Shown here in pieces: positions 13,625 through 57,065 of a stretch of DNA of 64,000 bases; position 1 is the stretch's first letter; the number at the start of each line of letters is the position of its first letter. Source of the stretch: Escherichia phage P896; the sequence record OL451225.1. One strand, written 5' to 3'. A program made the position numbers and the translations under genes. The notes under the pieces were generated by a model. It had not been told where the DNA came from and did no database searches. It was given only the letters and a program-made list of their open reading frames with translations.

Positions 13625-13662
13625 ATTATGCCTCATGACCATCTGGTTGTACACTACTTTTT
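13625..13662 (-). promoter_or_regulatory. Early promoter cassette (A-rich / TGTACA / 17 bp / CATAAT), PeSL-like
   Basis: Minus strand: aaaaaagtagTGTACAaccagatggtcatgaggCATAATgattccatactgagttac; shares the aactcagtatggaatcattatg block with cassettes at 17721, 31066 and 39521. Confidence 0.6.
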
Positions 13663-13690
13663 TAAAATAAAAAAGGACCCCGAAGGGTCC
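13661..13690 (-). terminator. Intrinsic terminator-like hairpin downstream of gene 52
   Basis: ggaccccgaagggtcc hairpin (13675-13690) followed on the minus strand by a T-run. Confidence 0.55.
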
Positions 13691-13788
13691 TAGTCTTTAT
13701 CTATCTTATTACCAATAAACATACCAACAATCACACCTGCGATTGCCGCAAAAATACAAAGCAATGCAAACTCAACTCCAAAACTCAT
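13690..13788 (-). CDS. Small hydrophobic peptide (32 aa)
   Basis: MSFGVEFALLCIFAAIAGVIVGMFIGNKIDKD read by hand; ATG overlaps the gp52 stop (ATGA). Confidence 0.3.
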   Translation of the reverse strand: MSFGVEFALLCIFAAIAGVIVGMFIGNKIDKD

Positions 13789-15164
13789 AGAGCCTCCAAA
13801 TCATTAAGGTATTCAGTTTTAACATCAGTTGTCTTCCAGTACTCATGCTCAGCTTTCTTAGCCTTTGCTTCGTCTGCAAGCTTCTTGGCTTCATCAGAGG
13901 TCATATGGTAGATGTTCATCGCCACTAACTTCTCTGCATAATCGCCATATATTTCACTCGCCTGGAGTTCCTCAATCAACTTCTTACGAGGTTTCCCCTG
14001 GATAACAACCTTACCATCAATCACTTCTTTAATAAAGAAGACTTTCGCGCGGGCCAGTTTAAATGCCGCTTCAGTTTCTTTAATCTTACTGTCAATTCGC
14101 ACTTGAACATAAGTCTTACGGACATCAACGAAATCGCGAATCAGGTCAAGCGTGTTGGTGTATTCAGCCAGCTTGCCTTTGTGATTAAGCACCGTTAAGT
14201 TCTGGGAGAGCTTCTCAATCAGACCGAAGTCTTTCATGATTTTCTCATGATTCTCTTCTTCAGTACCATCCAGCTTGTATTCTTTGCGGAATTTAATCTT
14301 AAACCCGAAACCATGCTCGCCGCAGTTATCTTTCCAGGTGATAAAACCTTTCTCTTCCAGTGGGTCCAGAATTTTACTTATATACTTTTCCAGGTTCCAT
14401 TGGACCGGGATTTCAGTAATTTCCATTTGAGTCCTGGAGGTCATTTTGTATGTGCCATGAAGCTCATACTTGCCAGGCTCTTCCAATTCAACAACTTTGC
14501 CACGGAATTCTGGATATTTTACTTTCGGAGCAACCGGCTCACGACCTTCCACGATAGCTTTAACAGCTTCCTTGACGTCCTGGAACGAATGAGGAAGAAT
14601 ATCAGTAGCGAAGCCAACAGCAATCCCAGAAGTGGCGTTAAGTAATACAGTAGGAATAACAGGAAGATAAAAAGCAGGAGGCTTATGTTCTTCATCAGGA
14701 TGGACCGGAGCATATTCTGTATCCTTAAACAAGTTATAAAAGTTCTTTGAAACCCTTGCGAATACATAACGAGCTGATGATGCTTCTGGCACCATTCTGG
14801 AACCAAAGTTACCTTGCCCATCAAACATGGGGTATTCATTTTTATATGTTGCAACCAGACCAGAAGTTGCTTCTTCCGCTGATGCTTCGCCATGGTGATA
14901 ACCATAATCAGCTACGCCACCTGCAATGGATGCAACCTTATGGAATTTATTCTTATCACCGCGCGCCAGGTCTAATGCTCTCGCCATAACAAATCTGTGA
15001 ACTGGTTTAAAACCATCAATCATGTTTGGGATGGCACGACCTTCCACAGTGTATATAGCATATGACAATGCTTCCACATCAATAATGTCTTTTAGACTGC
15101 GTGGGTTAAGGGTCCCCATGGAATCACTGAACTGTTTGGACATCATACTTAAAACGTCAGACAT
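13785..15164 (-). CDS. 52: DNA topoisomerase II medium subunit gp52 (GyrA-like)
   Basis: 459 aa (T4 gp52 about 442 aa); GyrA/ParC-type N-terminal motifs (RAIPNMIDGFKPVHRFV...). Confidence 0.9.
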   Translation of the reverse strand: MSDVLSMMSKQFSDSMGTLNPRSLKDIIDVEALSYAIYTVEGRAIPNMIDGFKPVHRFVMARALDLARGDKNKFHKVASIAGGVADYGYHHGEASAEEATSGLVATYKNEYPMFDGQGNFGSRMVPEASSARYVFARVSKNFYNLFKDTEYAPVHPDEEHKPPAFYLPVIPTVLLNATSGIAVGFATDILPHSFQDVKEAVKAIVEGREPVAPKVKYPEFRGKVVELEEPGKYELHGTYKMTSRTQMEITEIPVQWNLEKYISKILDPLEEKGFITWKDNCGEHGFGFKIKFRKEYKLDGTEEENHEKIMKDFGLIEKLSQNLTVLNHKGKLAEYTNTLDLIRDFVDVRKTYVQVRIDSKIKETEAAFKLARAKVFFIKEVIDGKVVIQGKPRKKLIEELQASEIYGDYAEKLVAMNIYHMTSDEAKKLADEAKAKKAEHEYWKTTDVKTEYLNDLEAL

Positions 15165-15172
15165 ATATCACC

Positions 15173-15313
15173 TTACCAGATTAACGAATGTACTGCCATT
15201 ATAGCATCAGAAATAAAAAGCACAACCTGCACTAATGCAAATACAACTCCATAATACAGCGCTACCAATAATGCAGCAAGGGCTAACGAGTAGCCCAGGA
15301 TTTTCTTAATCAT
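15173..15313 (-). CDS. Small membrane peptide (46 aa; 52.1 position)
   Basis: MIKKILGYSLALAALLVALYYGVVFALVQVVLFISDAIMAVHSLIW read by hand; ATGA overlap with the upstream gene stop. Confidence 0.4.
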   Translation of the reverse strand: MIKKILGYSLALAALLVALYYGVVFALVQVVLFISDAIMAVHSLIW

Positions 15314-15474
15314 CTATTAACCACAGAAATCATAAATTTAACAAAAGCGTCAGTTACAAACCATCCACATAAGAAATAAACAAACCCCATAGGCGGAACA
15401 AAGACACCTGCAAGAAAAAGCGTTACCAAAACAACTACTGCTATCATATAAATGAACGAAAAGACCGTTGACAT
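15310..15474 (-). CDS. ac: Small membrane protein, Ac-like (acriflavine sensitivity) by size and position
   Basis: Track ORF 15310..15495 appears to use a non-ATG start; the first ATG gives a 54 aa protein MSTVFSFIYMIAVVVLVTLFLAGVFVPP... (T4 Ac is about 51 aa) between stp and 52. Confidence 0.45.
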   Translation of the reverse strand: MSTVFSFIYMIAVVVLVTLFLAGVFVPPMGFVYFLCGWFVTDAFVKFMISVVNR

Positions 15475-15481
15475 ATTTTCC

Positions 15482-15562
15482 TCAGGGGCGTCCAAAGACG
15501 CCAGTTAATTTCAGATTATGACGATGCCATTGCATCACATGTTCATTATGGAAATTACTCAT
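15482..15562 (-). CDS. stp: Stp peptide (26 aa; anti-restriction peptide that also triggers the PrrC anticodon nuclease)
   Basis: Hand translation [26 protein letters not shown] closely matches the T4 Stp peptide as I recall it ([26 protein letters not shown]); starts 1 nt after the ndd stop. Confidence 0.8.
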
Positions 15563-15563
15563 A

Positions 15564-16013
15564 TTAATAGCTCTGCAAAATGAATTTAAAGTTATCAGCA
15601 AGCATGCGATTCATTTCTGAAAGGGTCTGACAATCAGAACTATGTGAGCGAGTGAACGCCATCGCAATTTGACCTTTACCATAACCAGTTGTCAGAGATT
15701 TCATTTTAGAAACTGGGACAAACAGGACTTCATAGATAACACCATTGTTCGCCATTGTGCGAGACAGTTGAGAACGCTGTTTGCGGATGTGACTTAACAC
15801 AGTGTCAAACCCTTGTTGTGAACGTTGGTTACCAACATAAAAACGTGCCGCAACAATACGTGATTCACCTTCACCTTTAACCACGAAATAAAAACCTGGC
15901 TGGGCGATAGCTTCTTTAGTTGGACGCCCTGCAACATAATTACCATTATGGATGTAAGCAACAGTGGTAGCGCCGGCATTCAGTACGTCACGACGGGTCA
16001 TGTAAGTAGTCAT
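15564..16013 (-). CDS. ndd: Nucleoid disruption protein Ndd (candidate)
   Basis: 149 aa (T4 Ndd about 151 aa), immediately upstream of stp and ac as in T4. Confidence 0.6.
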
Positions 16014-16056
16014 ATTAATTTCCTCAGTAAGTTAAAGTTTTGTGCTCCAGTGGGGT

Positions 16057-16095
16057 CATTATACTCTGACCCCAAGAGTATGTACACTATTTTTG
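16057..16095 (-). promoter_or_regulatory. Early promoter cassette (TGTACA / 17 bp / TATAAT inside an inverted repeat), PeSL-like
   Basis: Minus strand: aaaaatagTGTACAtactcttGGGGTCAgagTATAATGACCCCactggag, 45 nt upstream of the ndd ATG; near-identical copy at 26650-26695. Confidence 0.6.
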
Positions 16096-16431
16096 AAGTT
16101 GTTCTAAAATAAATCCGCTGGTGTAAAGGCTTGCATTATACAGGCGGTCAAGAGACAACGAATCCAATCCATAAGCTTCGCGAATTGCATTGATAGCACT
16201 CTCATAACTTGTATAATAAACATCGCGATAATCGCGGTCCATAGTCATGCGGAACTTAATAAATTTGTAGAAACCAGTTTCAGGGTCCTGATAGAATGCA
16301 AATTCTGCAGACATCAAATTTTTAAGGTTAACAGCTTTTGTACCACCTGAATAACTTAAATCAAATGCTTCTGATATGCTAATCTGTTTAAAGAACATAA
16401 TGTTGCGATTACCAAAAAAGATTTTAGACAT
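16087..16431 (-). CDS. Hypothetical protein
   Basis: 114 aa ORF preceded by a promoter cassette. Confidence 0.5.
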   Translation of the reverse strand: MSKIFFGNRNIMFFKQISISEAFDLSYSGGTKAVNLKNLMSAEFAFYQDPETGFYKFIKFRMTMDRDYRDVYYTSYESAINAIREAYGLDSLSLDRLYNASLYTSGFILEQLQK

Positions 16432-16470
16432 AATGATTTCCTCAGTTAAATTTTATTATCCACTGGGAAC

Positions 16471-16510
16471 ATTATACTCTGCTCCCAAGAGTTTGTACAC
16501 TATTCTACAT
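16471..16510 (-). promoter_or_regulatory. Early promoter cassette (TGTACA / 17 bp / TATAAT), PeSL-like
   Basis: Minus strand: gaatagTGTACAaactcttgggagcagagTATAATgttcccagtgg. Confidence 0.6.
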
Positions 16511-16745
16511 CAACTGCGTCATCCCACAAGTCAACTTCTTCTGATGATTCCATCAGTTCATCAACTGTGAAGCACTCAGTATTATTTTCAATTGCAAAAC
16601 GCTTCTGATAAAAAGGATAATCCAAACAGTTTTCAGTGCGCACGGGGCGTTCACTGTTATCCATTAAAGGCGAAATGCGAATCAGTTGTTGACCATTACC
16701 CAGGACAAATTTTTCACCAACTGCAATGTCTTTAAAAAGTTTCAT
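16500..16745 (-). CDS. Hypothetical protein
   Basis: 81 aa ORF in track. Confidence 0.45.
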   Translation of the reverse strand: MKLFKDIAVGEKFVLGNGQQLIRISPLMDNSERPVRTENCLDYPFYQKRFAIENNTECFTVDELMESSEEVDLWDDAVDVE

Positions 16746-16958: not shown

Positions 16959-17081
16959 TCAAAAGAAATAGTTAAAGTAAACACGCACATGGTCAATCAT
17001 AAAAACAATTGGGAAAATGCTCAGGACAACAAACAGTACAAACATGTTCCAAATGGCTTTAAGTAACTTTTTCATAATCAT
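16959..17081 (-). CDS. Small membrane peptide (40 aa)
   Basis: MIMKKLLKAIWNMFVLFVVLSIFPIVFMIDHVRVYFNYFF read by hand, directly downstream of a promoter cassette with the ATCAACTACTG leader. Confidence 0.35.
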   Translation of the reverse strand: MIMKKLLKAIWNMFVLFVVLSIFPIVFMIDHVRVYFNYFF

Positions 17082-17101
17082 CTCCAGTAGTTGATAGGTT
17101 C

Positions 17102-17140
17102 ATTATACTACAACCACCGGAGATGTACACTTTTTTATGC
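17102..17140 (-). promoter_or_regulatory. Early promoter cassette (TGTACA / 16 bp / TATAAT) with ATCAACTACTG leader
   Basis: Minus strand: aaaaaagTGTACAtctccggtggttgtagTATAATgaacctATCAACTACTGGAGATgattATG. Confidence 0.55.
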
Positions 17141-17220
17141 AAGTTTCATTAATAATAAACTAAAACAAACGCAAATTACTGGGATACACAACATCCAGAT
17201 AAGACACCAGGTTTTGCTGC

Positions 17221-17497: not shown

Positions 17498-17704
17498 TCA
17501 ATAATCAGCAAGCAAATCAACAATACAATCGCGAAGACATTTGTTTGCAATACGTTTAAGAGCAATTTCAGTTTCTGGAGCATTTTGAATAATCAAGGAA
17601 TTCAATTCAGCTTCAGCAAATTGCAATTCTTTAACCAGTTCAGCTTTATGCTTGCCTTCGCCTTGTTTTGCTTTAGCACGTTTTAATTCAGCAGTAGTCG
17701 ACAT
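17498..17704 (-). CDS. Hypothetical protein
   Basis: 68 aa ORF preceded by a promoter cassette. Confidence 0.5.
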   Translation of the reverse strand: MSTTAELKRAKAKQGEGKHKAELVKELQFAEAELNSLIIQNAPETEIALKRIANKCLRDCIVDLLADY

Positions 17705-17738
17705 TTTATTCTCCAGTTTGGTAACTCAGTATGGAATC

Positions 17739-17778
17739 ATTATGCACTGACTCCATACTGATGTACACTACTTTTTAA
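17739..17778 (-). promoter_or_regulatory. Early promoter cassette (TGTACA / 17 bp / CATAAT), PeSL-like
   Basis: Minus strand: aaaaagtagTGTACAtcagtatggagtcagtgCATAATgattccatactgagttacc. Confidence 0.6.
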
Positions 17779-18054
17779 TTAATTGTGCATTTGTTCTTTA
17801 ACTTCTTTATATGCGCCAACTGCATTCACGACCCCAGTAAAATCTGCAGTCCCACGATAGAGATAGAAAGCAATTTCAGTCAGGTGGTAGACTTCAAATT
17901 CTGAAAGATAAACGATAACGTCATAATATGCAACTTGGCCCTGGACTTCGTTGAATACCACATCAAAAATTTCATGGGTTGGAAAATTGATGTTGTTGTT
18001 TTTGAGTGCTTGAATAAGAATTTGTTTGATGTTGTGAGTAGTAACGTGTTCCAT
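17779..18054 (-). CDS. Hypothetical protein
   Basis: Track ORF 17779..18144; likely start is the ATG at 18054 (MEHVTTHNIKQ..., SD GAGGA). Confidence 0.45.
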   Translation of the reverse strand: MEHVTTHNIKQILIQALKNNNINFPTHEIFDVVFNEVQGQVAYYDVIVYLSEFEVYHLTEIAFYLYRGTADFTGVVNAVGAYKEVKEQMHN

Positions 18055-18101
18055 GATAATGTCCTCATTTGTTGGTGTGAGGACATTATTCCATAGTTGG
18101 T

Positions 18102-18695
18102 TCAGCTTGTAAACCGGTGATAGGGAAATTTTTCTTCTGAACAAGAACGGAGGTACCAGCCATCCCCTTGTGACTTCTGCACAAGACCAGACTCAGGAAC
18201 GAAAGCACCAGGTCCAGCAAGGAATTTTGGTTTAAATCTATAACCTTTGAGAGTCTCTTTTACATCGAGCATAATCATAAGGTCAGCAAGCTTGTGTTGC
18301 ATAAAAGGACCAAGATTGACCCCGTAACCATGCGGATAATCGCCCTGGTGACCAGTATGCACGGATATCCATTTGGAACCGGACTGATGAGTCTTGACTT
18401 CAATTCTTACGCCTTCTTTCGAAACTACATCAAATGCAAAGGAATAAGGATTATCGTAATCTTCATCACCGCCGCATAAAAAACCGGAGGTCCATTTGGC
18501 AATAGCTTGTTCAGCCATTGTGGCCACCATACATCTTTGCATGACTTGCTCACGGTCCTGACCTGGGTCTTTACGCAATGAATACCTGGCCGTGTCTACA
18601 ATCTTCTGCAGGGATTCAGGGGTTAAGTCTTCCTTCGTATAAAGAAAGGAGGGCATCTTTTTCAGATGCTCCCATGTTTTACTCTTCTGAATCAT
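18102..18695 (-). CDS. denB: Endonuclease IV DenB (candidate, by size and position)
   Basis: 197 aa ORF (T4 DenB about 185 aa) located before rIIB as in T4; no motif-level confirmation. Confidence 0.45.
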   Translation of the reverse strand: MIQKSKTWEHLKKMPSFLYTKEDLTPESLQKIVDTARYSLRKDPGQDREQVMQRCMVATMAEQAIAKWTSGFLCGGDEDYDNPYSFAFDVVSKEGVRIEVKTHQSGSKWISVHTGHQGDYPHGYGVNLGPFMQHKLADLMIMLDVKETLKGYRFKPKFLAGPGAFVPESGLVQKSQGDGWYLRSCSEEKFPYHRFTS

Positions 18696-22610: not shown

Positions 22611-22869
22611 TCTCCTGTAATATTTTTCTCATACTACGCATGGTAGCTTTATGTTCTTGGTCATGGTATATCAATGCAAGGAGTGCTTCAATTCGCTCCT
22701 CAGGGACCTTCTGGCCAGCCTTAATACTCATGGCTGTTGTTCTTACAGCTAATAAGTAACTTCGCTTCCTGTCGCTGTCTGGGAGCTCCTGCACCTTCCT
22801 CAGACCAGCTTCCATAATACAACGAGCAACATTTTGCAGATTAACTAAACTTCCGTCAGACATAATCAT
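22585..22869 (-). CDS. Hypothetical protein
   Basis: 94 aa ORF in track. Confidence 0.45.
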   Translation of the reverse strand: MIMSDGSLVNLQNVARCIMEAGLRKVQELPDSDRKRSYLLAVRTTAMSIKAGQKVPEERIEALLALIYHDQEHKATMRSMRKILQEIGNDELQS

Positions 22870-22917
22870 ATTTTCACCTCAAAGACATCTTAACACACTT
22901 TTTGTGGCTTGTACATA

Positions 22918-22942
22918 ATAAAAAGGTCTCCCGAAGGAGACC
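22918..22942 (-). terminator. Intrinsic terminator-like hairpin
   Basis: ggtctcccgaaggagacc hairpin followed on the minus strand by a T-run. Confidence 0.5.
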
Positions 22943-26120: not shown

Positions 26121-26612
26121 TTAGGCAAAATGAATATCAGCATACTCAACGATAAAGCTTTCAGGAACAACCTTAAAGGTTCCAAGGAACACAATATTAT
26201 ACAATTTAACCCCTTCTTCAACCCACTGGTCGGTGATGTAACCGGACATACTAGTGGTTTCATAAGTCGGACCATACATGCAATTGTATTCAAACGGTTT
26301 AGGTGAAACAAAAAAGACACCTTTGCCCAATTTCCATTTAAAATCAACCCCAACATGAGACTGGTCAATGGTTTCAACGTCTTCGGCCACAGGAGCGATG
26401 TACCCAGTAAATTCGGTTGATTCCAGGAATTTAGGATGCACATAAGCCAATTGAGTTTCAGTCTGACCATGTTTAGGAATAATACGCACTTTAACTTCTT
26501 TAATTCCGCCTACTAAATTAGTGCGAAGACTCACAACCTCAACAAAACGACCAGCCGCTTTAGAACGAGATTCTTTAGAAACACGTACAATATCACCAGC
26601 TTCAACTTTCAT
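26121..26612 (-). CDS. Hypothetical protein (MotB-position; paralogous C-terminal domain with 26689..27444)
   Basis: 163 aa; C-terminus GYITDQWVEEGVKLYNIVFLGTFKVVPESFIVEY resembles the C-terminus of the adjacent 251 aa protein. Confidence 0.55.
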   Translation of the reverse strand: MKVEAGDIVRVSKESRSKAAGRFVEVVSLRTNLVGGIKEVKVRIIPKHGQTETQLAYVHPKFLESTEFTGYIAPVAEDVETIDQSHVGVDFKWKLGKGVFFVSPKPFEYNCMYGPTYETTSMSGYITDQWVEEGVKLYNIVFLGTFKVVPESFIVEYADIHFA

Positions 26613-26654
26613 AATTTTCTCTCTTGGTTAATAAATTTATTCTCCAGTGGGGTC

Positions 26655-26695
26655 ATTATACTCTGACCCCAAGAGTTTGTACACAAATTTAATTA
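26655..26695 (-). promoter_or_regulatory. Early promoter cassette (TGTACA / 17 bp / TATAAT inside an inverted repeat), PeSL-like
   Basis: Minus strand: aatttgTGTACAaactcttGGGGTCAgagTATAATGACCCCactggagaa; near-identical to the cassette at 16051-16095. Confidence 0.6.
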
Positions 26696-27444
26696 AAAAT
26701 TTCAACAACCATGGAACGTGGTACAACAGTAAATTCACCAGCATGGACAACGTTCAGGAGTTCAACACCATCTTCAATCCACTGGTCTGTTACCCAACCA
26801 CAAATGGAACTATTAAATGGACGTTTGATTTGAACTGGTTTGCACAACAAGTCAATAGGGTCACCCAGTTCGCTAACTTCTTTCAGCAGTACAGATTCAC
26901 GCGGATAAAGGATAGCTTCAAGATTGTCACCTGATTCATTGACTGCAGTAAATTCAAAGATGCTTTGGTGATTGTGGTACTTAACTGTTTTAACGGTAAA
27001 TGGAGTAAATCCAAAAATACCTTTTAGTACACGCCAACCAGCATGCATTGCAACGGTCTTTCCAAACTGACTGGCATCTTCAATAAGCTGATAGGTTTTA
27101 CCAACTTTGATAGGAGTTTCTTCAACTTCTTTGAAGAGTTCAATCTCAGCTTCATAAACCATAATTTTTTCTACTTCATTTGTATCAAGGCGACGTGCAT
27201 GTAGAATATATGCTTTATCAAACCAGTTACTTTTTACAAAAGTTTCAACAATAAATTCACCTTCGCCTAAAGCATCAGTCAGAGTATTATACCCAGAAAC
27301 CATAGCTGCATTTTGAATAATAGGTTCAATCAGTTGATAAGTTTTGTTAATTTCAATAGTCATATTTTGTTTCTCAAGTTTTAATGGTTTAATTGGGCGA
27401 ACATACATACTTACAACATCAAAGTCAATAAATTCTGGTTTCAT
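26689..27444 (-). CDS. Hypothetical protein with internal duplication and a C-terminal domain paralogous to 26121..26612
   Basis: 251 aa; two KTYQLIE-containing segments; C-terminus GWVTDQWIEDGVELLNVVHAGEFTVVPRSMVVE. Confidence 0.55.
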   Translation of the reverse strand: MKPEFIDFDVVSMYVRPIKPLKLEKQNMTIEINKTYQLIEPIIQNAAMVSGYNTLTDALGEGEFIVETFVKSNWFDKAYILHARRLDTNEVEKIMVYEAEIELFKEVEETPIKVGKTYQLIEDASQFGKTVAMHAGWRVLKGIFGFTPFTVKTVKYHNHQSIFEFTAVNESGDNLEAILYPRESVLLKEVSELGDPIDLLCKPVQIKRPFNSSICGWVTDQWIEDGVELLNVVHAGEFTVVPRSMVVEIFN

Positions 27445-27701
27445 TATGCAACCTTATTGAACATCGCCAGTTGATTAGGTTGTACAACCATAATTTCACG
27501 ACGACCTTTTGTATTTGACACGTTCAGGTAGATGCCTTTGTTCATGTCTGTTTCTTTATCATATACCGCAATTTTATTGACAGTAAAGATTTTACCACGA
27601 ATATTTGCAAATGCACATTCAAACGCTTTAGTCAGACCTGCTTCAGCAGCTTGAAGAGCGGACATTTCATATTGTTGGCCAATTTCAAAAGAAGTAATCA
27701 T
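27444..27701 (-). CDS. Hypothetical protein (85 aa)
   Basis: Track ORF 27444..27749; likely start is the ATG at 27701 (MITSFEIG...), preceded by a promoter cassette and the ATCAACTACTGATGAGGA leader. Confidence 0.5.
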   Translation of the reverse strand: MITSFEIGQQYEMSALQAAEAGLTKAFECAFANIRGKIFTVNKIAVYDKETDMNKGIYLNVSNTKGRREIMVVQPNQLAMFNKVA

Positions 27702-27732
27702 TTTGTTGTCCTCATCAGTAGTTGATGAGATG

Positions 27733-27772
27733 ATTATGTCTCTTTCCATTGGCCTTGTACACTACTTTTTAT
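27733..27772 (-). promoter_or_regulatory. Early promoter cassette (TGTACA / 17 bp / CATAAT) with ATCAACTACTG leader
   Basis: Minus strand: aaaaagtagTGTACAaggccaatggaaagagaCATAATcatctcATCAACTACTGATGAGGAcaacaaaATG. Confidence 0.6.
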
Positions 27773-28452
27773 CGTTTTTTCGGCAAAGATAATGGGTCTG
27801 CATCTTCTTCGGAAGGAACTTCATCTAAACCAAGGGCATAGCGCTGGGCATACTTCAACATCAAAATATCTTTCGCGCAGTCATGTACCGAATCGTGCGC
27901 CACGAATCCATCTAAAGTCCCCTTTGGTAATGGAGTTTCACACATTTTACGGACGAGTGACAGGGCTTCGATTGCTGTTCTGATATCTCGCTGGTTCCAG
28001 AATACAACCGGCTCCAGGTTATAGGTATTCAATTCGCGCTCAGGAATCCCCTCATTGCGCTGTAGGTCACGGATAAGGTCAACAAACAACGGGAAGTCAA
28101 AAGACATTCCACGACACCACATAAGGCTTTCGTATTTGTTAATTCCATTACCATTCAGATAATCAATTGCCTGTTGGATACCAGTTAAAGTATCAACATC
28201 TTGCGCAGAAGGGACCAGGTTAACACGTGCTTCTGCTGATTGCTTTTTCCACCAATCCATGGTTGTTGTATCGAACAGACGCTTACCTTTTTGGTATTCA
28301 AGGCTGAACTTGATACGTTTGCCGCGATTAACTAGGGTTTCGAATGATTCCACAATAGCAGGGTCAGATTCGAATGTAATCAGAGCCAGGTCAATAACGG
28401 CTCCCTTCGAGCCGTTTCCCAGAGTTTCAAAGTCAATAATAGCATCAATCAT
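27769..28452 (-). CDS. dexA: Exonuclease A DexA (DnaQ-like 3'-5' exonuclease)
   Basis: 227 aa (T4 DexA 227 aa); N-terminal DxE exonuclease motif (MIDAIIDFETLGN) and C-terminal H...D motif (HDSVHDCAKD). Confidence 0.85.
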   Translation of the reverse strand: MIDAIIDFETLGNGSKGAVIDLALITFESDPAIVESFETLVNRGKRIKFSLEYQKGKRLFDTTTMDWWKKQSAEARVNLVPSAQDVDTLTGIQQAIDYLNGNGINKYESLMWCRGMSFDFPLFVDLIRDLQRNEGIPERELNTYNLEPVVFWNQRDIRTAIEALSLVRKMCETPLPKGTLDGFVAHDSVHDCAKDILMLKYAQRYALGLDEVPSEEDADPLSLPKKR

Positions 28453-30302: not shown

Positions 30303-31046
30303 TTAACCTCTAATCAGTTTAAAAATTGACGCGTTCAAAGGTAGACCTTTTTTCAGTTTAAGGCGGTCAATGAATGACAACTTATCTAAACGCTCCAGAC
30401 CTTGAATAATTTTATCATACATATCGTAACGCGTTTCAGCGTCAGATGATTTCATTTTCAGACGCCAGTCAGGACCGCCCATAACCATTTTCAGTCCACG
30501 TTGACTAGTTCCGATGGAAGCCATTTGTCCATGGATACGAGCCTTGACTGCAATCACAGAAGGGGTGGTATCTTTAGCGCCACTTTTATAAAGCTCTTTT
30601 AAATGTTTTTGACGCTTCTTGATTCCACGTTCGGTATCTTTAATATTTTTAACAATTTTGCGAATTTTATAATAGTCAGCAGGAGTTACTTTAAAACTAT
30701 TGGGCATCTTAGAACCACCATTAATACGCACCGCCAAACGAGTCTGTGCACGTTTAAGTTCATCAAGAGATAAATCAGCACGTAAACCGTTGTACTTAGT
30801 TTTGACAGGGATAACATTGCCTTCAATATAACCTATATCATTGTTAAAGCGTTCAAAGGAAACTTTATCTTGAGTTGAATTTTCATCAAAACGTTCACCA
30901 GAATACGCACAGAATTCTTGTTTCAAAAGATTGGCGATATACTTACTAGACAGATTGAAATCCTTGTTACGACGTTTTGCAGACGTTTTGGTATGCTCGC
31001 GACGTTTGTAAACTTTTAATTCAAACTCTTCTTTTGACATATTCAT
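30303..31046 (-). CDS. Srd-like protein (by size and position)
   Basis: 247 aa basic protein between dda.1 and the ART genes, where T4 carries srd (about 250 aa); no motif confirmation. Confidence 0.4.
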   Translation of the reverse strand: MNMSKEEFELKVYKRREHTKTSAKRRNKDFNLSSKYIANLLKQEFCAYSGERFDENSTQDKVSFERFNNDIGYIEGNVIPVKTKYNGLRADLSLDELKRAQTRLAVRINGGSKMPNSFKVTPADYYKIRKIVKNIKDTERGIKKRQKHLKELYKSGAKDTTPSVIAVKARIHGQMASIGTSQRGLKMVMGGPDWRLKMKSSDAETRYDMYDKIIQGLERLDKLSFIDRLKLKKGLPLNASIFKLIRG

Positions 31047-31082
31047 GATATTTTTCTCATCTTACGGACGATTGAAAACTCA

Positions 31083-31120
31083 GTATGGATTCATTATACA
31101 CTATTCATCTTTTATGTACA
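31083..31120 (-). promoter_or_regulatory. Early promoter cassette (TGTACA / 16 bp / TATAAT), PeSL-like
   Basis: Minus strand: aaaaagtagTGTACAtaaaagatgaatagtgTATAATgaatccatactgagtttt. Confidence 0.55.
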
Positions 31121-31202
31121 CTACTTTTTAGCCTTTAACGCTTTTATTTTTACTGTGTATAATGGTTCTAAGGTCTTTGGCCTTTTGTTAACCCAGAATA
31201 CT

Positions 31203-31817: not shown

Positions 31818-31848
31818 TTTATTATCCTCATCAGTAGTTGATAGGAAC

Positions 31849-39154: not shown

Positions 39155-39177
39155 AAGAAAAAGGGGCTGTAAGCCCC
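39155..39177 (-). terminator. Intrinsic terminator-like hairpin
   Basis: ggggctgtaagcccc hairpin followed on the minus strand by a T-run; next is a TATAAT plus ATCAACTACTGGAGA leader for the downstream gene. Confidence 0.5.
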
Positions 39178-39186
39178 TTTGTTCAC

Positions 39187-39489
39187 TTACGCCAACTCAT
39201 AGTTGTGCATAGTCAGACAACGAATTTTCCCAGTAGTTGGGTGCATAACAGTCACACTAATTGTGTAATCATCGCACACGTTAACAAAAGGTTCAGCGAT
39301 AACATATACTGCCCCGCCTGCAAGCAGATACTCACGAAGAGAGCTGCGAACAGATGAAGGTTGAACATCGCTTTTGAGCTTTATTAATTTACCAGTTTGA
39401 ATGCCTGATGCGATAAGAGCAGCACAGTTTTCATCACGGCGAGCGAATTGTCCAAAATAGTAACGATTCATATCGGTTTGATTAAACAT
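39187..39489 (-). CDS. Hypothetical protein
   Basis: 100 aa ORF in track, preceded by a promoter cassette. Confidence 0.45.
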   Translation of the reverse strand: MFNQTDMNRYYFGQFARRDENCAALIASGIQTGKLIKLKSDVQPSSVRSSLREYLLAGGAVYVIAEPFVNVCDDYTISVTVMHPTTGKIRCLTMHNYELA

Positions 39490-39538
39490 ATGGTTTTCCT
39501 TTTAACAGTTGGTTTATTGTGTAACTCAGTATGGAATC

Positions 39539-39578
39539 ATTATGTCCTAAGACAAGGGGCTTGTACACTATTTTAATT
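39539..39578 (-). promoter_or_regulatory. Early promoter cassette (TGTACA / 17 bp / CATAAT), PeSL-like
   Basis: Minus strand: aaaatagTGTACAagccccttgtcttaggaCATAATgattccatactgagttacac. Confidence 0.6.
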
Positions 39579-39816
39579 CATTAATTAAATGAAAATCTTG
39601 TGCATTGAAAGTAATGAAAAAATAATCATTCCCTTCAACTGAAGCATGACAGGCAACACTACACCAGCGCCTTGCTCTGTTCAAGGAGCAATCCAAAATT
39701 TTAAAAGGCTTCAGACCAACAATGGCAGCTGTTCTTTTATTATGCTCACAAATATCAGCATACTTTTGGAGAGCTTCTTCAGATTTGAACTGGTAATGCA
39801 CATTAACTAATAACAT
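39568..39816 (-). CDS. Hypothetical protein (adjacent to gene 41, where T4 carries dmd)
   Basis: 82 aa ORF with the ATCAACTACTGATGAGGA leader upstream; T4 Dmd is 60 aa, so equivalence is only positional. Confidence 0.4.
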   Translation of the reverse strand: MLLVNVHYQFKSEEALQKYADICEHNKRTAAIVGLKPFKILDCSLNRARRWCSVACHASVEGNDYFFITFNAQDFHLINELK

Positions 39817-39882
39817 TTTATTATCCTCATCAGTAGTTGATGGGATAATAGTACACCCTTTTTATGAGGATGTAAACCCCTA

Positions 39883-39905
39883 AATGAAAAAAGGTCCACC
39901 CGAAG
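39883..39905 (-). terminator. Weak terminator-like hairpin after gene 41
   Basis: Short GC stem (accc..gggt) followed on the minus strand by a T-run, just 3' of the gp41 stop. Confidence 0.3.
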
Positions 39906-39910
39906 GGTCT

Positions 39911-43590: not shown

Positions 43591-43829
43591 TTTGCTTCCT
43601 TGATGATAATTACTTGTGCATTTGATTTACGTTCAGCAACGAGTGCCCAGATAAATGCAATAAACCATCCGACCATTGTCCAACCTAACAGGAGGTTAAC
43701 AAAGAAGATTCCGCAATTACTTTTGGTTCCACGCAGTAGCGCGATAATCCACGGCAGAAAATATACCAGTGCAGCCAGGAAGAAAGAACCAGCCCCAAGA
43801 ACAACAGTACCCGCAATTAATGCTTCCAT
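43587..43829 (-). CDS. imm: Superinfection immunity protein Imm (membrane)
   Basis: Track ORF 43587..43901; likely start at ATG 43829, giving an 80 aa two-TM protein (T4 Imm 83 aa) directly downstream of gene 43. Confidence 0.7.
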   Translation of the reverse strand: MEALIAGTVVLGAGSFFLAALVYFLPWIIALLRGTKSNCGIFFVNLLLGWTMVGWFIAFIWALVAERKSNAQVIIIKEAK

Positions 43830-43901
43830 TTTAATATCCTCAAGTTTGTAATCAGTAGTTGATGGAACAATCATACGGCAATCCTTTGCCGTTGTAAACA
43901 C

Positions 43902-46616
43902 TTAAAAATCAAACATATCAAAAAGAGTTGCTTTCTTTTCGTAATCAACCTTTGCAGCTTCGGAGAAACCTGTTAATGGCTTAACAAAAGTCTTCTGGAA
44001 CAGTGTGTTGTAGTCCATCCACTGCAGAACCTGGTCACGGATTTCAATCGGGAGTTCAATCCCAGATGGCCATGCAATCACGGTTTCACCAAACGGGTTG
44101 CCGACTTTGAGCGGAAGTACATACACCTTTTCCCCTTCCATGATTTGCGGAACAGTCTTCAGACCTTTAGTTGCACGCATATATGCAAGCACACCTTTGA
44201 TATGAGCCGGACACTTAAATCCAGGGAAACCGCCTTCATTATATTTCTGGATGTTGTTAACCGATGATACACCTGCGATGGTCATGTAGTTAAGCTCATT
44301 AAATTCCTTATTGAATTCCTTGAAGTATGTCTGCAGAGATTCTTCACCTTCTTGCAGCATACGGCGGATACATTCTTTCAGAGCTTTCTGACATGCCTTT
44401 GGAGTACTCGACTTTTGAGTTTCCAGACCCATGATTTTCAGTTTCGGAACAGCATATCGTGTGCCTTCCATATCGTACACGTTCAACGCATAACGCTTCT
44501 TCGCTGTCCAGAATCCACCAACACCCTTCGAACCCAGTGGAGGACATGCAATCGCCTCACGGTCCATAAACATAAGGTGCTGTTTGTTGTTCATGTATTC
44601 AGCCAGCTCACGGAAAGCTTTATCGATTGCCGGTTCCAGACGGTCTTTCGCAAACTTGTCCATGAAGTCAACCAGGTGGTTTGTATCGCGGAATTTAGAT
44701 TCACCACCAACCTTTTTAATCAGGTTATCGCACTGGATATAAATGGAGTCAGTGTCACCATAGAATACGTAGGTTTCGCCGCTTGTCCCACAGACACTAT
44801 CGAAGTATTCGTTAACTTTACGCTCAATCCACTGCAATGCAAGTTGTCCGAAAGATGTAATCGCGGTTGCATTTCGCAGGTCAAAGTAACGGAACCATAT
44901 ATTGCCCAGAGCGCCATAACAACTGTTGATAAGCAGTTTACGGTTAATCTGTGCGGTCATGCCTGCAACTTCTTCCATCTGCGCTTTGTACAGCATACCA
45001 TTTAGGACTGTTTGATTCAGACCATGCAGGGCCGTTTTCATATTGTCATCAAAGTCATGACGATAATCAACTTCAGGCTCGGTTGTACCAGTTCCTGGAT
45101 TACGCAGAGCTTCCTTAATCAGTTCACCATTACGTTGAGCCGCAAGCATATAGCCTTTGTGTTCTTTACGCTGATTAAACACCTTGGTGACTTCTGTCGG
45201 AATAATACCCGCAACATCTTTAAAATACATCATACCATTTGGAGCACAACTAAATGTATCAGATGGACGGTCAGCAGTTCCTGCAATGTATTCGTACATC
45301 GGCGCTGGCGCAAATGACCCGGCAATCGTTTCTGGACTGATGTTAATCTGTCGGATAATGCTTGGATACAGAGATGTTAAGTCACAGCTCATTACATATT
45401 TGTATGCGTTCGGAATCGGTTCCTTAACAAATGCACCAGGGAACGATTGGCGAACATGTGATTTGGTTTCCGGAATGACTTTGTTTTGAGTCTTCAGGCT
45501 GTTAAAGATAATCGCATCCCAAGTTTTGATTGGGCTGAATACAGACTGAATCTGCATTTTTGCATAATAACCCATTGACTGGCTCAGGTTAATAAACTGC
45601 CGCTTACGGTCAATCTGCACAACACGATAAACGTCGATGATGTTATAAGAAATATACCGCTGGTGATTTGATTCACGCAGTTTAGAAATCGGGCCATCAT
45701 ACGGGAGTTTACCAACACCCAGTTCAGATTCCGCAACATAATCCAACGAATAAGACGGTTGGTTTGTGAAGCTGAACTTTTTATACAGGTCCAGATAATC
45801 CAGAACAGAGATACCCAGAATCTGAATGATTTCTTGTTCTTCACCAAAGCCGTTGTTAATGACTTTAACTTTTGTACGACGATGTGGGCTCAGACGTTTT
45901 GCCGTAGCTTCACCAAATACATTTTTAAGGCGGTTGTAGATATATGGAATATCAAACTTCTCGATGTTCCAACCAGTTAACATAACCGGAGTTTTCTCGT
46001 TCCAGAATACCAAATACTGCTGGAGCATTTCTTCTTCTGAATCGAAAGCCATATAAACAATTTTTTCCAGGATTTCTTCCGGGACTTCATCACCACCATC
46101 TTCCTGCAGCTTAGCAGCAATATCAATAGACCATTGCTCCACAGTGGCGTATGGTGAGCCCAAAAGGTCAAAGACATAGAATTTATCGTCTACCGAATCA
46201 TAGTGCGTCAGGGCGTCAATAGGGTGACGTGCTTCAGACGGCTCAGGGAACCCATCAGGAGATGTCACCTCGATATCGAAGTTAGCCACACGGATTTTAC
46301 TTGAATCGTATTTGATTTCGTGCGGGTAACGGTCGGACAAGTATGCGAGTTTAAAGTCGTCCATGCCCATGGCTTCGAGGCCCATGTCATTCATTCGCTT
46401 CATCCACTGGGATGCATCACGCATGGAATCGAATTCTTTTTTCACACAACCTTTATTATAGATGTCTGTATACTTTGCAGCTTGGTCTTCACGGGCGTGC
46501 ATAAACAAGCATGGAGCATAAGGGATTTCACGAACACGTTCATGACCATTCTTGTCAATATATCGTTCGTGTAGGTTGTCACCGATTTGTTCGATAGTTA
46601 AATAAAATTCTTGCAT
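43902..46616 (-). CDS. 43: DNA polymerase gp43 (family B, with 3'-5' exonuclease)
   Basis: 904 aa (T4 gp43 898 aa); exonuclease motifs (FDIEV, YNIIDV) and polymerase motifs (SCYGALG, YGDTDS). Confidence 0.95.
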   Translation of the reverse strand: MQEFYLTIEQIGDNLHERYIDKNGHERVREIPYAPCLFMHAREDQAAKYTDIYNKGCVKKEFDSMRDASQWMKRMNDMGLEAMGMDDFKLAYLSDRYPHEIKYDSSKIRVANFDIEVTSPDGFPEPSEARHPIDALTHYDSVDDKFYVFDLLGSPYATVEQWSIDIAAKLQEDGGDEVPEEILEKIVYMAFDSEEEMLQQYLVFWNEKTPVMLTGWNIEKFDIPYIYNRLKNVFGEATAKRLSPHRRTKVKVINNGFGEEQEIIQILGISVLDYLDLYKKFSFTNQPSYSLDYVAESELGVGKLPYDGPISKLRESNHQRYISYNIIDVYRVVQIDRKRQFINLSQSMGYYAKMQIQSVFSPIKTWDAIIFNSLKTQNKVIPETKSHVRQSFPGAFVKEPIPNAYKYVMSCDLTSLYPSIIRQINISPETIAGSFAPAPMYEYIAGTADRPSDTFSCAPNGMMYFKDVAGIIPTEVTKVFNQRKEHKGYMLAAQRNGELIKEALRNPGTGTTEPEVDYRHDFDDNMKTALHGLNQTVLNGMLYKAQMEEVAGMTAQINRKLLINSCYGALGNIWFRYFDLRNATAITSFGQLALQWIERKVNEYFDSVCGTSGETYVFYGDTDSIYIQCDNLIKKVGGESKFRDTNHLVDFMDKFAKDRLEPAIDKAFRELAEYMNNKQHLMFMDREAIACPPLGSKGVGGFWTAKKRYALNVYDMEGTRYAVPKLKIMGLETQKSSTPKACQKALKECIRRMLQEGEESLQTYFKEFNKEFNELNYMTIAGVSSVNNIQKYNEGGFPGFKCPAHIKGVLAYMRATKGLKTVPQIMEGEKVYVLPLKVGNPFGETVIAWPSGIELPIEIRDQVLQWMDYNTLFQKTFVKPLTGFSEAAKVDYEKKATLFDMFDF

Positions 46617-55537: not shown

Positions 55538-55860
55538 TTCGCACCCTTAATAATTTTCAGGTCAACAAAACCTTTCTTACGCTGGGAATTCATGCGCTTG
55601 ATGGCTTTGTCAGAAACTTCTTTGTTTTCACGTGGAAGCGGCAGACCAAACGCTACTACATCAAATTCATTCAGGATATACTGGACAAGGCTTTCACGAA
55701 TACGCGCTTTACCCATTGTCTGACCTTCTGCAATAATTAGCTTCTGTACATCGCCTTCCCACTGGTCCAGAATTTCAGGGGTAACGAAACCAGATTTCAT
55801 CAGAGTGTTGACTTTAGCAAACGCGAAATTAGCGATGGTGTTAGTGATAGATGCAGTCAT
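55534..55860 (-). CDS. Hypothetical protein
   Basis: 108 aa ORF in track; first gene of a four-gene overlapping operon. Confidence 0.5.
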   Translation of the reverse strand: MTASITNTIANFAFAKVNTLMKSGFVTPEILDQWEGDVQKLIIAEGQTMGKARIRESLVQYILNEFDVVAFGLPLPRENKEVSDKAIKRMNSQRKKGFVDLKIIKGAK

Positions 55861-55902
55861 GATATATTCCTCAGTCTCATTAAATTAAAATTTTATTATC
55901 CT

Positions 55903-55924
55903 GGGGTCATTATACCATGACCCC
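55903..55924 (-). promoter_or_regulatory. Extended minus-10 promoter (TGgTATAAT) embedded in an 8 bp stem hairpin
   Basis: Minus strand: GGGGTCATGgTATAATGACCCC, about 45 nt upstream of the ATG at 55860; same ggggtca..tgacccc arms as the cassettes at 16051 and 26650. Confidence 0.5.
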
Positions 55925-55932
55925 GTTGGTTT

Positions 55933-56130
55933 TTATTGCGCTTTAGCCGCTTTCCAGCCTTCATACATCATTGCGGCTGATATTAATATCGCTCCTGAAC
56001 AACTTGAATACTTGTGATTCCAAAACCAGTTTAGAAAAACTTCGTCATCGATACCTTGAGCTATCATATTTTCAAAGAACTGACGACGAGCTTCAGCAAT
56101 TCGCTGTGATAATTTAGATTCAGGGTTCAT
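55933..56130 (-). CDS. Hypothetical protein
   Basis: 65 aa ORF in track. Confidence 0.4.
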   Translation of the reverse strand: MNPESKLSQRIAEARRQFFENMIAQGIDDEVFLNWFWNHKYSSCSGAILISAAMMYEGWKAAKAQ

Positions 56131-56262
56131 TTAAATTTTCCAGTTACCGTTTTCATCAATAAATTCAATCCAGTCATTTACTGACCACTTGGTTGTATCG
56201 CCTTTTGGAGCAGAATTTAAAGCGTATAATCCTTGTTTAAAAAGCATTCGTTTGATATTCAT
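56131..56262 (-). CDS. Small hypothetical protein (43 aa)
   Basis: Track ORF 56131..56355; likely start at ATG 56262 (MNIKRMLF..., SD GAGGA), avoiding overlap with the upstream gene. Confidence 0.35.
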   Translation of the reverse strand: MNIKRMLFKQGLYALNSAPKGDTTKWSVNDWIEFIDENGNWKI

Positions 56263-56269
56263 GTTTTCC

Positions 56270-56563
56270 TCAGCTGTAACGATAGCACTCGTTTGATTTA
56301 CGTTTTGCAACACGGTGAGAAGTATTATAATCAAAATCATCCTCAACGTATACATCTTTTTTCAACTGACGAACTTCTTTACGCAGTTGACGATTCATCT
56401 CATTCTTGACTTCTGAATCAACGCCACGCATACGCTTCCATTTGTCTGAACGGAAGATATTTTCTTCAACTTGTTCCTGACTTACACCATCAGGCGCTCG
56501 GCGACGCCCTGAATAATAAAAATCTTTTACAGACAATTCTTTGCGACGAATAGTTTTACCCAT
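56270..56563 (-). CDS. Hypothetical basic (Arg/Lys-rich) protein
   Basis: 97 aa ORF in track. Confidence 0.45.
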   Translation of the reverse strand: MGKTIRRKELSVKDFYYSGRRRAPDGVSQEQVEENIFRSDKWKRMRGVDSEVKNEMNRQLRKEVRQLKKDVYVEDDFDYNTSHRVAKRKSNECYRYS

Positions 56564-56565
56564 AG

Positions 56566-56820
56566 TTACCTCAGCAGTTTGTATCCAATAAGCTTTTTAA
56601 TGTACTGGATATCTTTGACATCCAAATCCAACTTAAGGTCTTTCAGACGGTCGACCAGGGTCAAAAAGGTTACATGTTTCCAATTCTTCACTGGGCAACA
56701 ATAAGTCTTAGGACCATTTGCAATTTCAATATTTTTATCTGTGACGGTGATAAAAATCAAACGTTCATCATCAAGATTAAGGGTGGCGACATTTTTCATT
56801 GAATGTAATTTCAGGCTCAT
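56566..56820 (-). CDS. Hypothetical protein
   Basis: 84 aa ORF in track. Confidence 0.45.
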   Translation of the reverse strand: MSLKLHSMKNVATLNLDDERLIFITVTDKNIEIANGPKTYCCPVKNWKHVTFLTLVDRLKDLKLDLDVKDIQYIKKLIGYKLLR

Positions 56821-56999
56821 AATTTAGGTCCTTTTGCAACTGTATTGAACAAGCTACGGTCACACACCATCAACGGAGCATCAGGCCATTTCAAAGGACG
56901 ATACCATACATCTTGGTCCGTCACTTTGGTTACTTGCACAGGATAGCCATTTACTGAATAATACTGGTCGGCTTTAATTTCTTTATCTTCAATAACCAT
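56817..56999 (-). CDS. Hypothetical protein (60 aa)
   Basis: Track ORF 56817..57077; likely start at ATG 56999 (MVIEDKE...), preceded by a promoter cassette and the ATCAACTACTGATGAGGA leader. Confidence 0.45.
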   Translation of the reverse strand: MVIEDKEIKADQYYSVNGYPVQVTKVTDQDVWYRPLKWPDAPLMVCDRSLFNTVAKGPKL

Positions 57000-57030
57000 T
57001 TTGTTTTCCTCATCAGTAGTTGATGGGATA

Positions 57031-57065
57031 ATGATACACCGTTCAAAGGGGCTTGTACACCCCTT
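57031..57065 (-). promoter_or_regulatory. Early promoter cassette (TGTACA in a hairpin loop / 17 bp / TATCAT) with ATCAACTACTG leader
   Basis: Minus strand: aaaaaGGGGtGTACAagCCCCtttgaacggtgTATCATtatcccATCAACTACTGATGAGGAaaacaaaATG. Confidence 0.55.

Follow-up and report, generated by a model that had tools for sequence, protein, structure and literature searches.

What are the short, repeated promoter-like cassettes that punctuate the small-gene regions on the minus strand of Escherichia phage P896, and do they mark where genes are transcribed or where genes are exchanged? A preliminary description of a 64,000-nucleotide stretch of this phage (record OL451225.1; hereafter the window) had listed 13 such sites and had read them both as early promoter sites of a T4-type phage and as mobile early promoter/stem-loop cassettes (PeSLs) that flank shuffled gene modules. 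The analysis presented here indicates that the sites, each at the head of a short minus-strand early unit, are very probably σ70-dependent early promoters (Pe) of a T-even-type phage belonging to Gaprivervirus, and that the cassettes have no special link to gene gain and loss, the module-flanking role being true only locally.

A family of promoter-like cassettes on the minus strand

A census of 116 minus-strand gene junctions revealed about 21 members of the family, which we name by the coordinate of the first base of the -35 heptamer: 11148, 13654, 16087, 16500, 17130, 17768, 18114, 22916, 26684, 27762, 31121, 31878, 32479, 38594, 39174, 39568, 39877, 43899, 57060, 61478 and the atypical 55930. 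Their common layout begins with an A-rich tract, continues with GTGTACA or GTTTACA and, 16-17 nt further on, a TATAAT-like hexamer, and ends with a brief leader, a Shine-Dalgarno sequence (SD) and ATG. Twenty of the sites, all on the coding (minus) strand, showed a GT[GT]TAC-like hexamer, N16-17 and a TAnnnT-like -10 hexamer with SD and ATG after them, and every site was located 20-60 nt upstream of a same-strand SD and ATG. A-rich UP-like tracts (AAAAAGTA, AAAATA and similar) abut the -35 element upstream in most copies. The stop codon of the upstream gene lies 2-15 nt before the -35 element in 12 of 20 sites, with a TAG fused to it in 16087, 16500, 32479 and 39568, and downstream of it in three cassettes (11148, 18114 and 31878). 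Because the stop precedes the -35 element so closely in most sites, the A-rich tract is usually coding and specifies the C-terminal residues of the upstream gene.

The pattern GT[GT]TACA-N16-18-TAnnAT occurred 11 times on the minus strand and not at all on the plus strand, compared with 0.12 expected under a first-order Markov model. A two-block position weight matrix (PWM) with a score of at least 12 returned 18 minus-strand, no plus-strand and no null matches; this matrix was built from 14 seeds, whose own high scores are by construction, and together with a profile it recovered members beyond the seeds. The blocks following the -10 hexamer sort the copies into three types, A (GACCCCACTGGAG), B (GATTCCATACTGAGTTAC) and C (CC[C/T]ATCAACTACTG...), and the exact 15-mer AAAAAGTAGTGTACA has four minus-strand and no plus-strand copies. 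No family reached the gathering threshold when the whole window was scanned against Rfam.

All 13 sites of the preliminary description exist, and 12 of them have the full architecture, the one given as 55903 lacking a -35 element; the coordinates used there correspond to the low end of the -10 hexamer, except at 55903, which is the end of a hairpin. Its list lacked 11148, 18114 (a weak member), 22916, 32479, 39174, 39877, 43899 and 61478, two of which lie beyond the range it covered. The near-identity it reported between 16051-16095 and 26650-26695 was borne out, with about 90% identity over 60 nt between 16030-16110 and 26630-26710 and 41 of 42 positions identical in the 42-nt cores. The sequence block it described as repeated at four sites is a 22-mer, AACTCAGTATGGAATCATTATG, exact at 13609, 17723 and 39523, whereas the copy at 31077, placed earlier at 31066, has two mismatches; the other three positions had been 2 nt off.

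The window belongs to Gaprivervirus, a group of T4-like coliphages, its best megablast matches being PSD2001, DK-13, VR26 and SP18 with 93-97% identity (96% for PSD2001), and it is identical to none of them. According to the PSD2001 annotation, the plus strand from 1 to 10.8 kb carries tail-fibre genes and a holin, and from 10.8 kb onward the T4 early/middle block occupies the minus strand, in the order asiA, motA, 52, ndd, denB, rIIB, rIIA, 39, motB, dexA, dda, srd, modA, modB, 56, 61, dmd, 41, uvsX, 43, regA, 62, 44, 45 and onward. All cassette sites lie on the minus strand within this block, and the T4 early genes found downstream of them are asiA, the motA unit, ndd, motB, srd, modA, modB and imm. 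The members are listed below, all on the minus strand, with predicted start sites (+1) and folding z-scores (z) for several of them.

11067-11168, minus: cassette of the asiA homologue (named from the PSD2001 annotation), GTGTACA 11148-11142, N17, TACAAT; a weaker member, with the upstream gene's stop codon within the promoter.
13573-13691, minus: type B cassette, terminator hairpin 13691-13674 and T-run, AAAAAAGTA, GTGTACA (13654), N17, CATAAT 13630-13625, GATTCCATACTGAGTTAC, SD, ATG 13575; predicted +1 13618; z = -3.9.
16011-16107, minus: type A cassette before ndd, TAG fused to TGTACA (16087), N17, TATAAT; stem GGGGTC/GACCCC with a loop of AGAG plus the -10 hexamer; predicted +1 16051.
16429-16520, minus: type A cassette, TAG fused to TGTACA (16500); stem GGGAGC/GTTCCC across the -10 hexamer, with compensating changes relative to the 16087 stem; a replacement breakpoint of relatives at 16442-16446; predicted +1 16464.
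17073-17150, minus: type C cassette, GTGTACA 17130, N16, TATAAT, GAACCTATCAACTACTGGAG; z = -4.7; heads a 38-aa ndd.4-like membrane open reading frame (ORF) and is the positional orthologue of the T4 early promoter before ndd.4; predicted +1 17095.
17702-17788, minus: type B cassette, GTGTACA 17768; 14-bp stem TCAGTATGGAGTCA/TGATTCCATACTGA spanning the -10 hexamer; z = -4.9; the ORF that follows is replaced or deleted in 7/7 relatives, with the breakpoint at its start codon (17702); predicted +1 17732.
18052-18134, minus: weak member, GTTTACA 18114, N17, AATAAT; -35 element within the upstream gene and a leader hairpin over the SD.
22867-22942, minus: terminator 22942-22925 and T-run, ATGTACA 22916, N17, TAAGAT.
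26610-26704, minus: type A cassette before motB, GTGTACA 26684; core identical to that of the ndd cassette at 41 of 42 positions; predicted +1 26648.
27699-27782, minus: type C cassette, TAAAAAGTA, GTGTACA 27762, N17, CATAAT, CATCTCATCAACTACTGATGAGGA, ATG 27701; predicted +1 27726.
31044-31141, minus: type B cassette before srd, GTGTACA 31121, N16, TATAAT; distal leader 100% identical to the Dhakavirus orthologue, core just 55%; predicted +1 31086.
31815-31898, minus: type C cassette before modA, GTGTACA 31878, N17, TAAGAT; -35 element within the upstream modB frame; predicted +1 31842.
32420-32499, minus: cassette before modB, TAG fused to TTTACT (32479), N17, CATAAT; leader hairpin over the SD; z = -3.6.
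38534-38614, minus: type C cassette before an sp/61.3-like lipoprotein ORF, GTTTACA 38594 (GTGTACA in 7/7 relatives), -10 hexamer TATATT; predicted +1 38558.
39116-39194, minus: type C cassette (39174), -35 element CTTACA in the loop and stem of a terminator hairpin, AAAGGGGC-TTA-CAGCCCCTTTTT, followed by TATAAT; lower edge of a 729-nt variable block; predicted +1 39138.
39487-39588, minus: type B cassette, TAG fused to TGTACA (39568), N17, CATAAT; inside the variable two-ORF block; predicted +1 39532.
39814-39907, minus: cassette after gene 41, terminator-like hairpin, GTTTACA 39877, N17, TACTAT, TATCCCATCAACTACTGATGAGGA; z = -3.7; upper edge of the variable block; predicted +1 39841.
43827-43919, minus: type C cassette directly after the gene 43 stop, GTTTACA 43899, TATGAT; spacer hairpin ACGGCAA/TTGCCGT; heads an imm-region ORF; predicted +1 43863.
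55858-55935, minus: atypical member (55930) with no recognisable -35 element (AATAAA) and an extended -10 element TGgTATAAT, its -10 hexamer (55914-55909) in the loop of an 8-bp hairpin GGGGTCAT/ATGACCCC (55924-55903).
56997-57080, minus: type C cassette, hairpin AAAGGGG/CCCCTTT with the -35 element GTGTACA 57060 in its loop, then TATCAT; predicted +1 57024.
61406-61498, minus: cassette within the 3' end of the upstream ORF, GTTTACA 61478, N17, TATAAT; the Dhakavirus counterpart is conserved almost base for base.

Conservation of the promoter elements and of their positions

Comparison of the cassettes with those of seven relatives showed that the -35 heptamer had diverged by 0.028 and the -10 hexamer by 0.037; the spacer had diverged by 0.106 and third codon positions by 0.109. 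The two elements thus diverge 3-4 times less than the spacer, which changes at about the rate of third codon positions, and this pattern is a promoter footprint, the mark of selective constraint on the recognition hexamers.

Most of the positions also have counterparts in T4 and Dhakavirus. A tblastn search with the downstream ORFs placed promoters of the same architecture at T4 and/or Dhakavirus orthologues of ndd, motB, srd, modA, modB, sp, the ndd.4-like ORF and imm. Directly upstream of ndd, T4 itself has a hairpin (GGCCG...CGGCC) and no early-type promoter, and Gaprivervirus and Dhakavirus have one, so that some promoter positions are not conserved. A start-site block, ..CTATCAACTA.., is common to Gaprivervirus, Dhakavirus and T4. 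A conserved 5'-terminal leader hairpin (CATCA-ACTAC-TGATG) in type C copies was also considered and was rejected as a general feature; Dhakavirus retains ..CTATCAAC.. without the 3' arm, indicating that the conserved part is the start-site region and not the structure.

Early promoters of T4 comprise UP, -35, TGn and -10 elements together with further conserved regions (Hinton 2010, PMC2988021). Judged by sequence, the sites agree with this T4-type early promoter class in every feature tested, and the proposal of the preliminary description that they are putative early promoter sites of a T4-type phage, σ70-type cassettes by their architecture and gene context, is upheld on that basis.

A genus-specific -35 element

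The preliminary description had also held that the -35 element is mostly (G)TGTACA rather than the GTTTAC of T4, and the counts agree. GTGTAC was found at 63-77% of promoters in 8 of 8 Gaprivervirus genomes examined; GTTTAC, by contrast, was used at 14 of 14 T4 and 16 of 16 Dhakavirus promoters, with no GTGTAC in either. In T4 numbering the Gaprivervirus dialect is a T-to-G change at -34. Lineage-specific -35 variants are on record (Nolan et al. 2006, PMC1524935); the G reported for RB49, RB43 and Aeh1 lies at -33 and is a different variant from the Gaprivervirus G at -34. No published early-promoter consensus for Gaprivervirus, VR7 or JS98 was found in the literature searched, outside which falls the VR7 genome note (Archives of Virology); nor did that literature yield published 5'-end maps for the T4 group.

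The heptamer GTGTACA occurs 12 times on the minus strand and once on the plus strand and is one base from the GTTTACA of T4. The palindromy of TGTACA was considered as a functional feature and rejected: the conserved unit is the asymmetric heptamer with its strand bias, and palindromy therefore appears incidental.

Stem-loops associated with the cassettes

When the region from -45 to +30 was folded, the z-scores averaged -2.2, and 11 of the 20 sites scored below -2. Stems were found in an upstream terminator hairpin (13654, 22916 and 39877), around the -35 element (39174 and 57060), in the spacer (43899), across the -10 hexamer (16087, 16500, 17130, 17768, 26684 and 55930) and in the leader (18114 and 32479), and all five PeSL positional classes of stem are represented. 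Folding gave no convincing stem in 31121, 31878, 38594 and 39568. The inverted repeats enclosing a -10 or -35 element that had been described earlier were confirmed. The accompanying claim that several sites directly follow a terminator is clear for the one listed as 13625 and generous for the 13 as a whole (at 57031 the -35 element lies in a G-rich hairpin loop), although it holds for the then unlisted members 22916, 39174 and 39877; a hairpin followed by a T-run was present only in these three and 13654.

One form recurs in a fixed register, with a 6-9 bp stem and a loop consisting of N4 plus the -10 hexamer. It was present in 16 of 89 distinct promoters from ten genomes, compared with 3.9 expected and a permutation maximum of 10 in 1000. 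In the covariation analysis, seven of seven stem pairs were changed on both sides, the sequences having been pre-selected for pairing so that their 100% pairing is partly by construction. The analysis drew on the promoter loci of the ten genomes and not on IMG/VR matches; a search of IMG/VR for the type A pattern, with the stem positions left free, matched only four close relatives, too few for covariation on a broad scale. At the orthologous motB promoters the stem reads GGGGTC/GACCCC in the window, GGGACC/GGTCCC in T4 and GAGAGCC/GGCTCTC in Dhakavirus, all in the same register, and the stem around the -10 loop is kept by compensatory changes across three genera. Its 3' arm lies upstream of the predicted +1, which places the stem outside the promoter's own mRNA, so that it would act only in read-through RNA or in DNA.

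Palindromes at these positions could also be operators, either TGTACA or the -10 inverted repeats being bound by a dimeric phage or host protein that shuts off early transcription. TGTACA is fully palindromic, the -10 hexamer lies at the centre of the inverted repeats, and the mechanism that shuts off T4 early promoters has been stated to be unknown (PMC2988021). However, the unit conserved here is asymmetric and strand-biased and differs by a single base from a T4 heptamer that is not palindromic. The stem arms, moreover, differ completely between sites and genera while pairing is kept, which argues for structure rather than a sequence-specific protein site, and stem positions vary from cassette to cassette. 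We therefore regard operators as extremely improbable.

Copying of promoter cores between sites

Comparison of paralogous and orthologous cassettes revealed opposite patterns of identity. Among paralogues within the window the cores were 0.80-0.98 identical and the flanks 0.41-0.68, whereas among orthologues the cores were 0.55-0.83 and the flanks 0.62-1.0 identical. Because paralogous cores exceed orthologous cores in identity and the flanks show the reverse, cores of about 45 nt (-35 to about +12) have in all likelihood been copied between sites while the sites themselves stayed put, presumably by short-patch recombination or gene conversion. In Dhakavirus, the orthologous ndd and motB cores are distinct from one another as well as from those of the window.

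Similar cores might instead have arisen by convergence alone, each promoter having been selected independently, with no copying, toward an optimum for the phage-modified RNA polymerase. Such an explanation would suit the purifying selection on the -35 and -10 elements and the conservation of the start-site block across genera, and the genus-wide GTGTAC dialect could reflect a shared optimum. The spacer speaks against it: between relatives it diverges quickly, yet in the window an exact 22-mer recurs in three type B copies and the ndd and motB cores agree, spacer included, at 41 of 42 positions. The orthologous promoters of Dhakavirus have unrelated spacers. Since a fast-evolving spacer that is identical between paralogues is not explained by convergent selection alone, we consider this alternative very unlikely and favor the copying of cores between promoters.

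Cassettes and gene shuffling

The preliminary description had further proposed that the cassettes are mobile flanks of shuffled modules and had raised the question of whether module boundaries coincide with them. We compared the window with seven relatives over the minus-strand region and recorded 33 distinct indel or replacement events. Breakpoints were not enriched at cassettes in this data set of seven relatives and one window, with 5 of 21 early-cassette junctions affected versus 33 of 95 others (Fisher p = 0.44), and 7 of the 33 events touched a cassette. About 10 of some 50 relative-specific segments include or adjoin a cassette, and most ORFs unique to relatives do neither. Together with the conservation of most cassette positions with Dhakavirus and T4, these counts argue against cassettes as general flanks of mobile modules. 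The boundary check was run, and only two loci, 39180-39910 and 38598-38618, fit. The structural part of the PeSL description did hold for the window: the cassettes have the AT-rich tract, the -35/N17/-10 promoter, the variable stem-loop, the SD and the ATG.

The junctions affected most were wide intergenic gaps without an early cassette, which contain terminators and middle promoters, 9 of 16 of which were hit, compared with 24 of 79 tight stop/start junctions. Whole small ORFs are present or absent at tight junctions at 11301-11580, 56141-56257, 61526-61848 and 62168-62329.

The first of the two fitting loci is a 729-nt block at 39180-39910, comprising two cassette-plus-ORF units, which is missing in TH57, TH22 and TH40. 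Both of its edges lie in cassettes and the junction falls in the A-rich zone, with AAAG microhomology only and no hybrid cassette at the junction. At the second, 38598-38618, homology resumes at the -35 heptamer of 38594 after three unrelated upstream sequences. Opposite 39156-39869 of the window, TH54 carries a 530-nt replacement block with two cassettes whose promoters follow T4/Dhakavirus spelling (GTTTAC...TACTAT / TATTAT-AGACCTATCAACTA), which suggests that the block was imported from another genus.

At 38597-38620 the window lacks an ORF that 7/7 relatives have between a dmd-like gene and the 38594 cassette; in the relatives this ORF takes one of two unrelated forms, of about 342 or about 240 nt, and in either case shows translational coupling to the gene before it.

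These loci raise the possibility that the cassettes serve primarily for recombination, as PeSLs in a strong sense would, and that they are conserved over about 100 bp because they mediate excision and insertion of the flanked ORFs via mini-circles and so drive most of the change in gene content in these regions. The loss of two cassette-plus-ORF units with cassette edges and an A-rich junction is what Arbiol et al. propose, and the rejoining of homology at a -35 element, the two cassettes in foreign dialect in the TH54 block and the copying of cores between sites point the same way. Against this stand the lack of enrichment at cassettes and the more frequent hits in other wide gaps, the small share of events touching a cassette (7/33) compared with RB49/phi1, where 10 of 14 differential ORFans are contiguous to a PeSL, the lack of a hybrid cassette at 39180-39910, the absence of cassettes at most extra ORFs of relatives and the conservation of most cassette positions back to T4. 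A primary role in recombination is thus unlikely.

Two further differences between the window and its relatives were observed. In TH44 alone, 134 nt take the place of the segment 57876-60285 (2.4 kb), whose ORFs of 156 and 605 aa are, to go by the annotation of relatives, probably the genes for anaerobic ribonucleotide reductase. Within the frame of the srd homologue, about 300 nt (30453-30752) are swapped for a non-alignable segment in 6 of 7 relatives; the lengths are nearly equal (298 vs 304 nt), making this an intragenic mosaic and not an indel.

A model for early transcription from the cassettes

We propose that host RNA polymerase holoenzyme would bind the A-rich UP-like tract, usually the last codons of the upstream gene, and would recognise the -35 heptamer (GTGTACA in roughly 70% of the sites, GTTTACA in the others), followed after a 16-17 nt spacer by the -10 hexamer TATAAT or CATAAT. 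Transcription would start at the conserved A located 7 nt downstream of the -10 hexamer (..CCA/..CTA) and would produce a leader of 20-60 nt ending in SD and ATG. The stem around the -10 loop may act in read-through RNA, as an attenuator, a processing site or a 3'-end stabiliser, or it may act in DNA. Most promoter positions are inherited from a common ancestor with T4, and core copying within the lineage probably produced the near-identical subfamilies A, B and C.

Several observations weigh against this interpretation. A scan for generic σ70 hexamers found 67 sites, not above the 56.7 +/- 7.4 obtained with shuffles, indicating that the signal resides in the extended family-specific motif. 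TGTACA agrees with TTGACA at four of six positions, and the TGn element present in T4 is missing in most sites, so that promoter strength cannot be assumed. Promoter activity, its timing and the +1 positions are predictions. The gene map used for the junctions is a heuristic gene call. With respect to the stems, the pre-selection of the covariation sequences described above also counts here; wobble positions were unbiased in a strand-of-action test, with 31 G.T versus 31 A.C internal positions; and the hairpins across the -10 hexamer have no U-run and are consequently not canonical intrinsic terminators.

A more elaborate proposal would join three parts: that the stem with its loop of N4 plus the -10 hexamer is regulatory, that the genus-wide switch at -34 reflects co-evolution of the whole promoter set with a polymerase-modifying phage factor, and that this switch spread through the set by short-patch conversion of the ~45-nt cores. 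Compensatory changes maintain the stem at the motB and ndd promoters and their orthologues across Gaprivervirus, Dhakavirus and T4, and, as a DNA hairpin or cruciform or as a hairpin in read-through RNA, it could insulate early promoters or help to switch them off. As a joint claim this is speculative, and we consider it quite improbable that all three parts hold together.

For annotation, our data provide an early-promoter model for Gaprivervirus, GTGTACA, N17, (T/C)ATAAT, in which the A seven bases beyond the -10 hexamer is the predicted +1; public Gaprivervirus records carry no promoter features. Three observations go slightly beyond what has been catalogued, namely that the whole promoter set is shifted by one base at -34 in one genus, that cores appear to be exchanged between sites that themselves stay put, and that a stem enclosing the -10 hexamer is kept by compensatory change yet lies outside the promoter's predicted transcript. 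The results also temper the PeSL model, as gene gain and loss in Gaprivervirus are as frequent at plain junctions as at cassettes.

Comparison with known phage promoters and PeSLs

The cassettes share their intergenic location and the -10 element with MotA-dependent middle promoters and the PmSLs of nt-1. They differ in having a -35-type heptamer 17 nt from the -10 hexamer, and a MotA box (TGCTT at -30, 11-13 nt from the -10 hexamer) was absent from all cassette sites. A second family with a MotA box (WWTGCTTnn-N10-12-TAnnAT) was found 11 times on the minus strand and once on the plus strand, compared with 0.58 expected, and did not overlap the cassettes. Its minus-strand sites include 25022, 33478, 34318, 35482, 37830, 50047, 50580, 53181, 54750 and 58120, and the plus-strand site is 571; at 25022, 34318 and 53181 the T-run of a terminator hairpin merges with the TGCTT box, an arrangement that resembles the nt-1 PmSLs.

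PeSLs are known from RB49/phi1, PST/T4 and nt-1/KVP40 (Arbiol et al. 2010, PMC2839356; Comeau et al. 2014, PMC4122927). Like them, the cassettes of the window combine an AT-rich tract, a σ70-like promoter, a stem-loop in any of several positions, SD and ATG within about 100 bp, precede small ORFs in variable regions and bound some indels, with the junction in the A-rich zone. The 17130 cassette is moreover the positional orthologue of the T4 promoter at ndd.4, the locus at which a PeSL-flanked exchange has been described (Comeau et al. 2014, PMC4122927). In contrast to PeSLs, the -35 element is GTGTACA in the window, as opposed to TTGACA in RB49 and TTTACW in PST/T4, and no preferential association with breakpoints was seen in the window data set.

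The closest likeness is to T4 Pe. The cassettes occur in the same gene contexts (the motA unit, ndd-region ORFs, motB, srd, modA/modB, sp and imm) and have the same elements, an A-rich tract AAAAAGTn, a G at -36, a -35 element GTnTAC, a 17-nt spacer and a -10 hexamer. They differ in that the -10 hexamer is mostly TATAAT or CATAAT, whereas T4 often has TGG-TACTAT, so that TGn is mostly missing in the window, and in the genus-specific type B block GATTCCATACTGAGTT that follows the -10 hexamer in Gaprivervirus. In sum, the sites are ordinary T-even early promoters, a well-known kind of signal with a genus-specific spelling of the -35 element.

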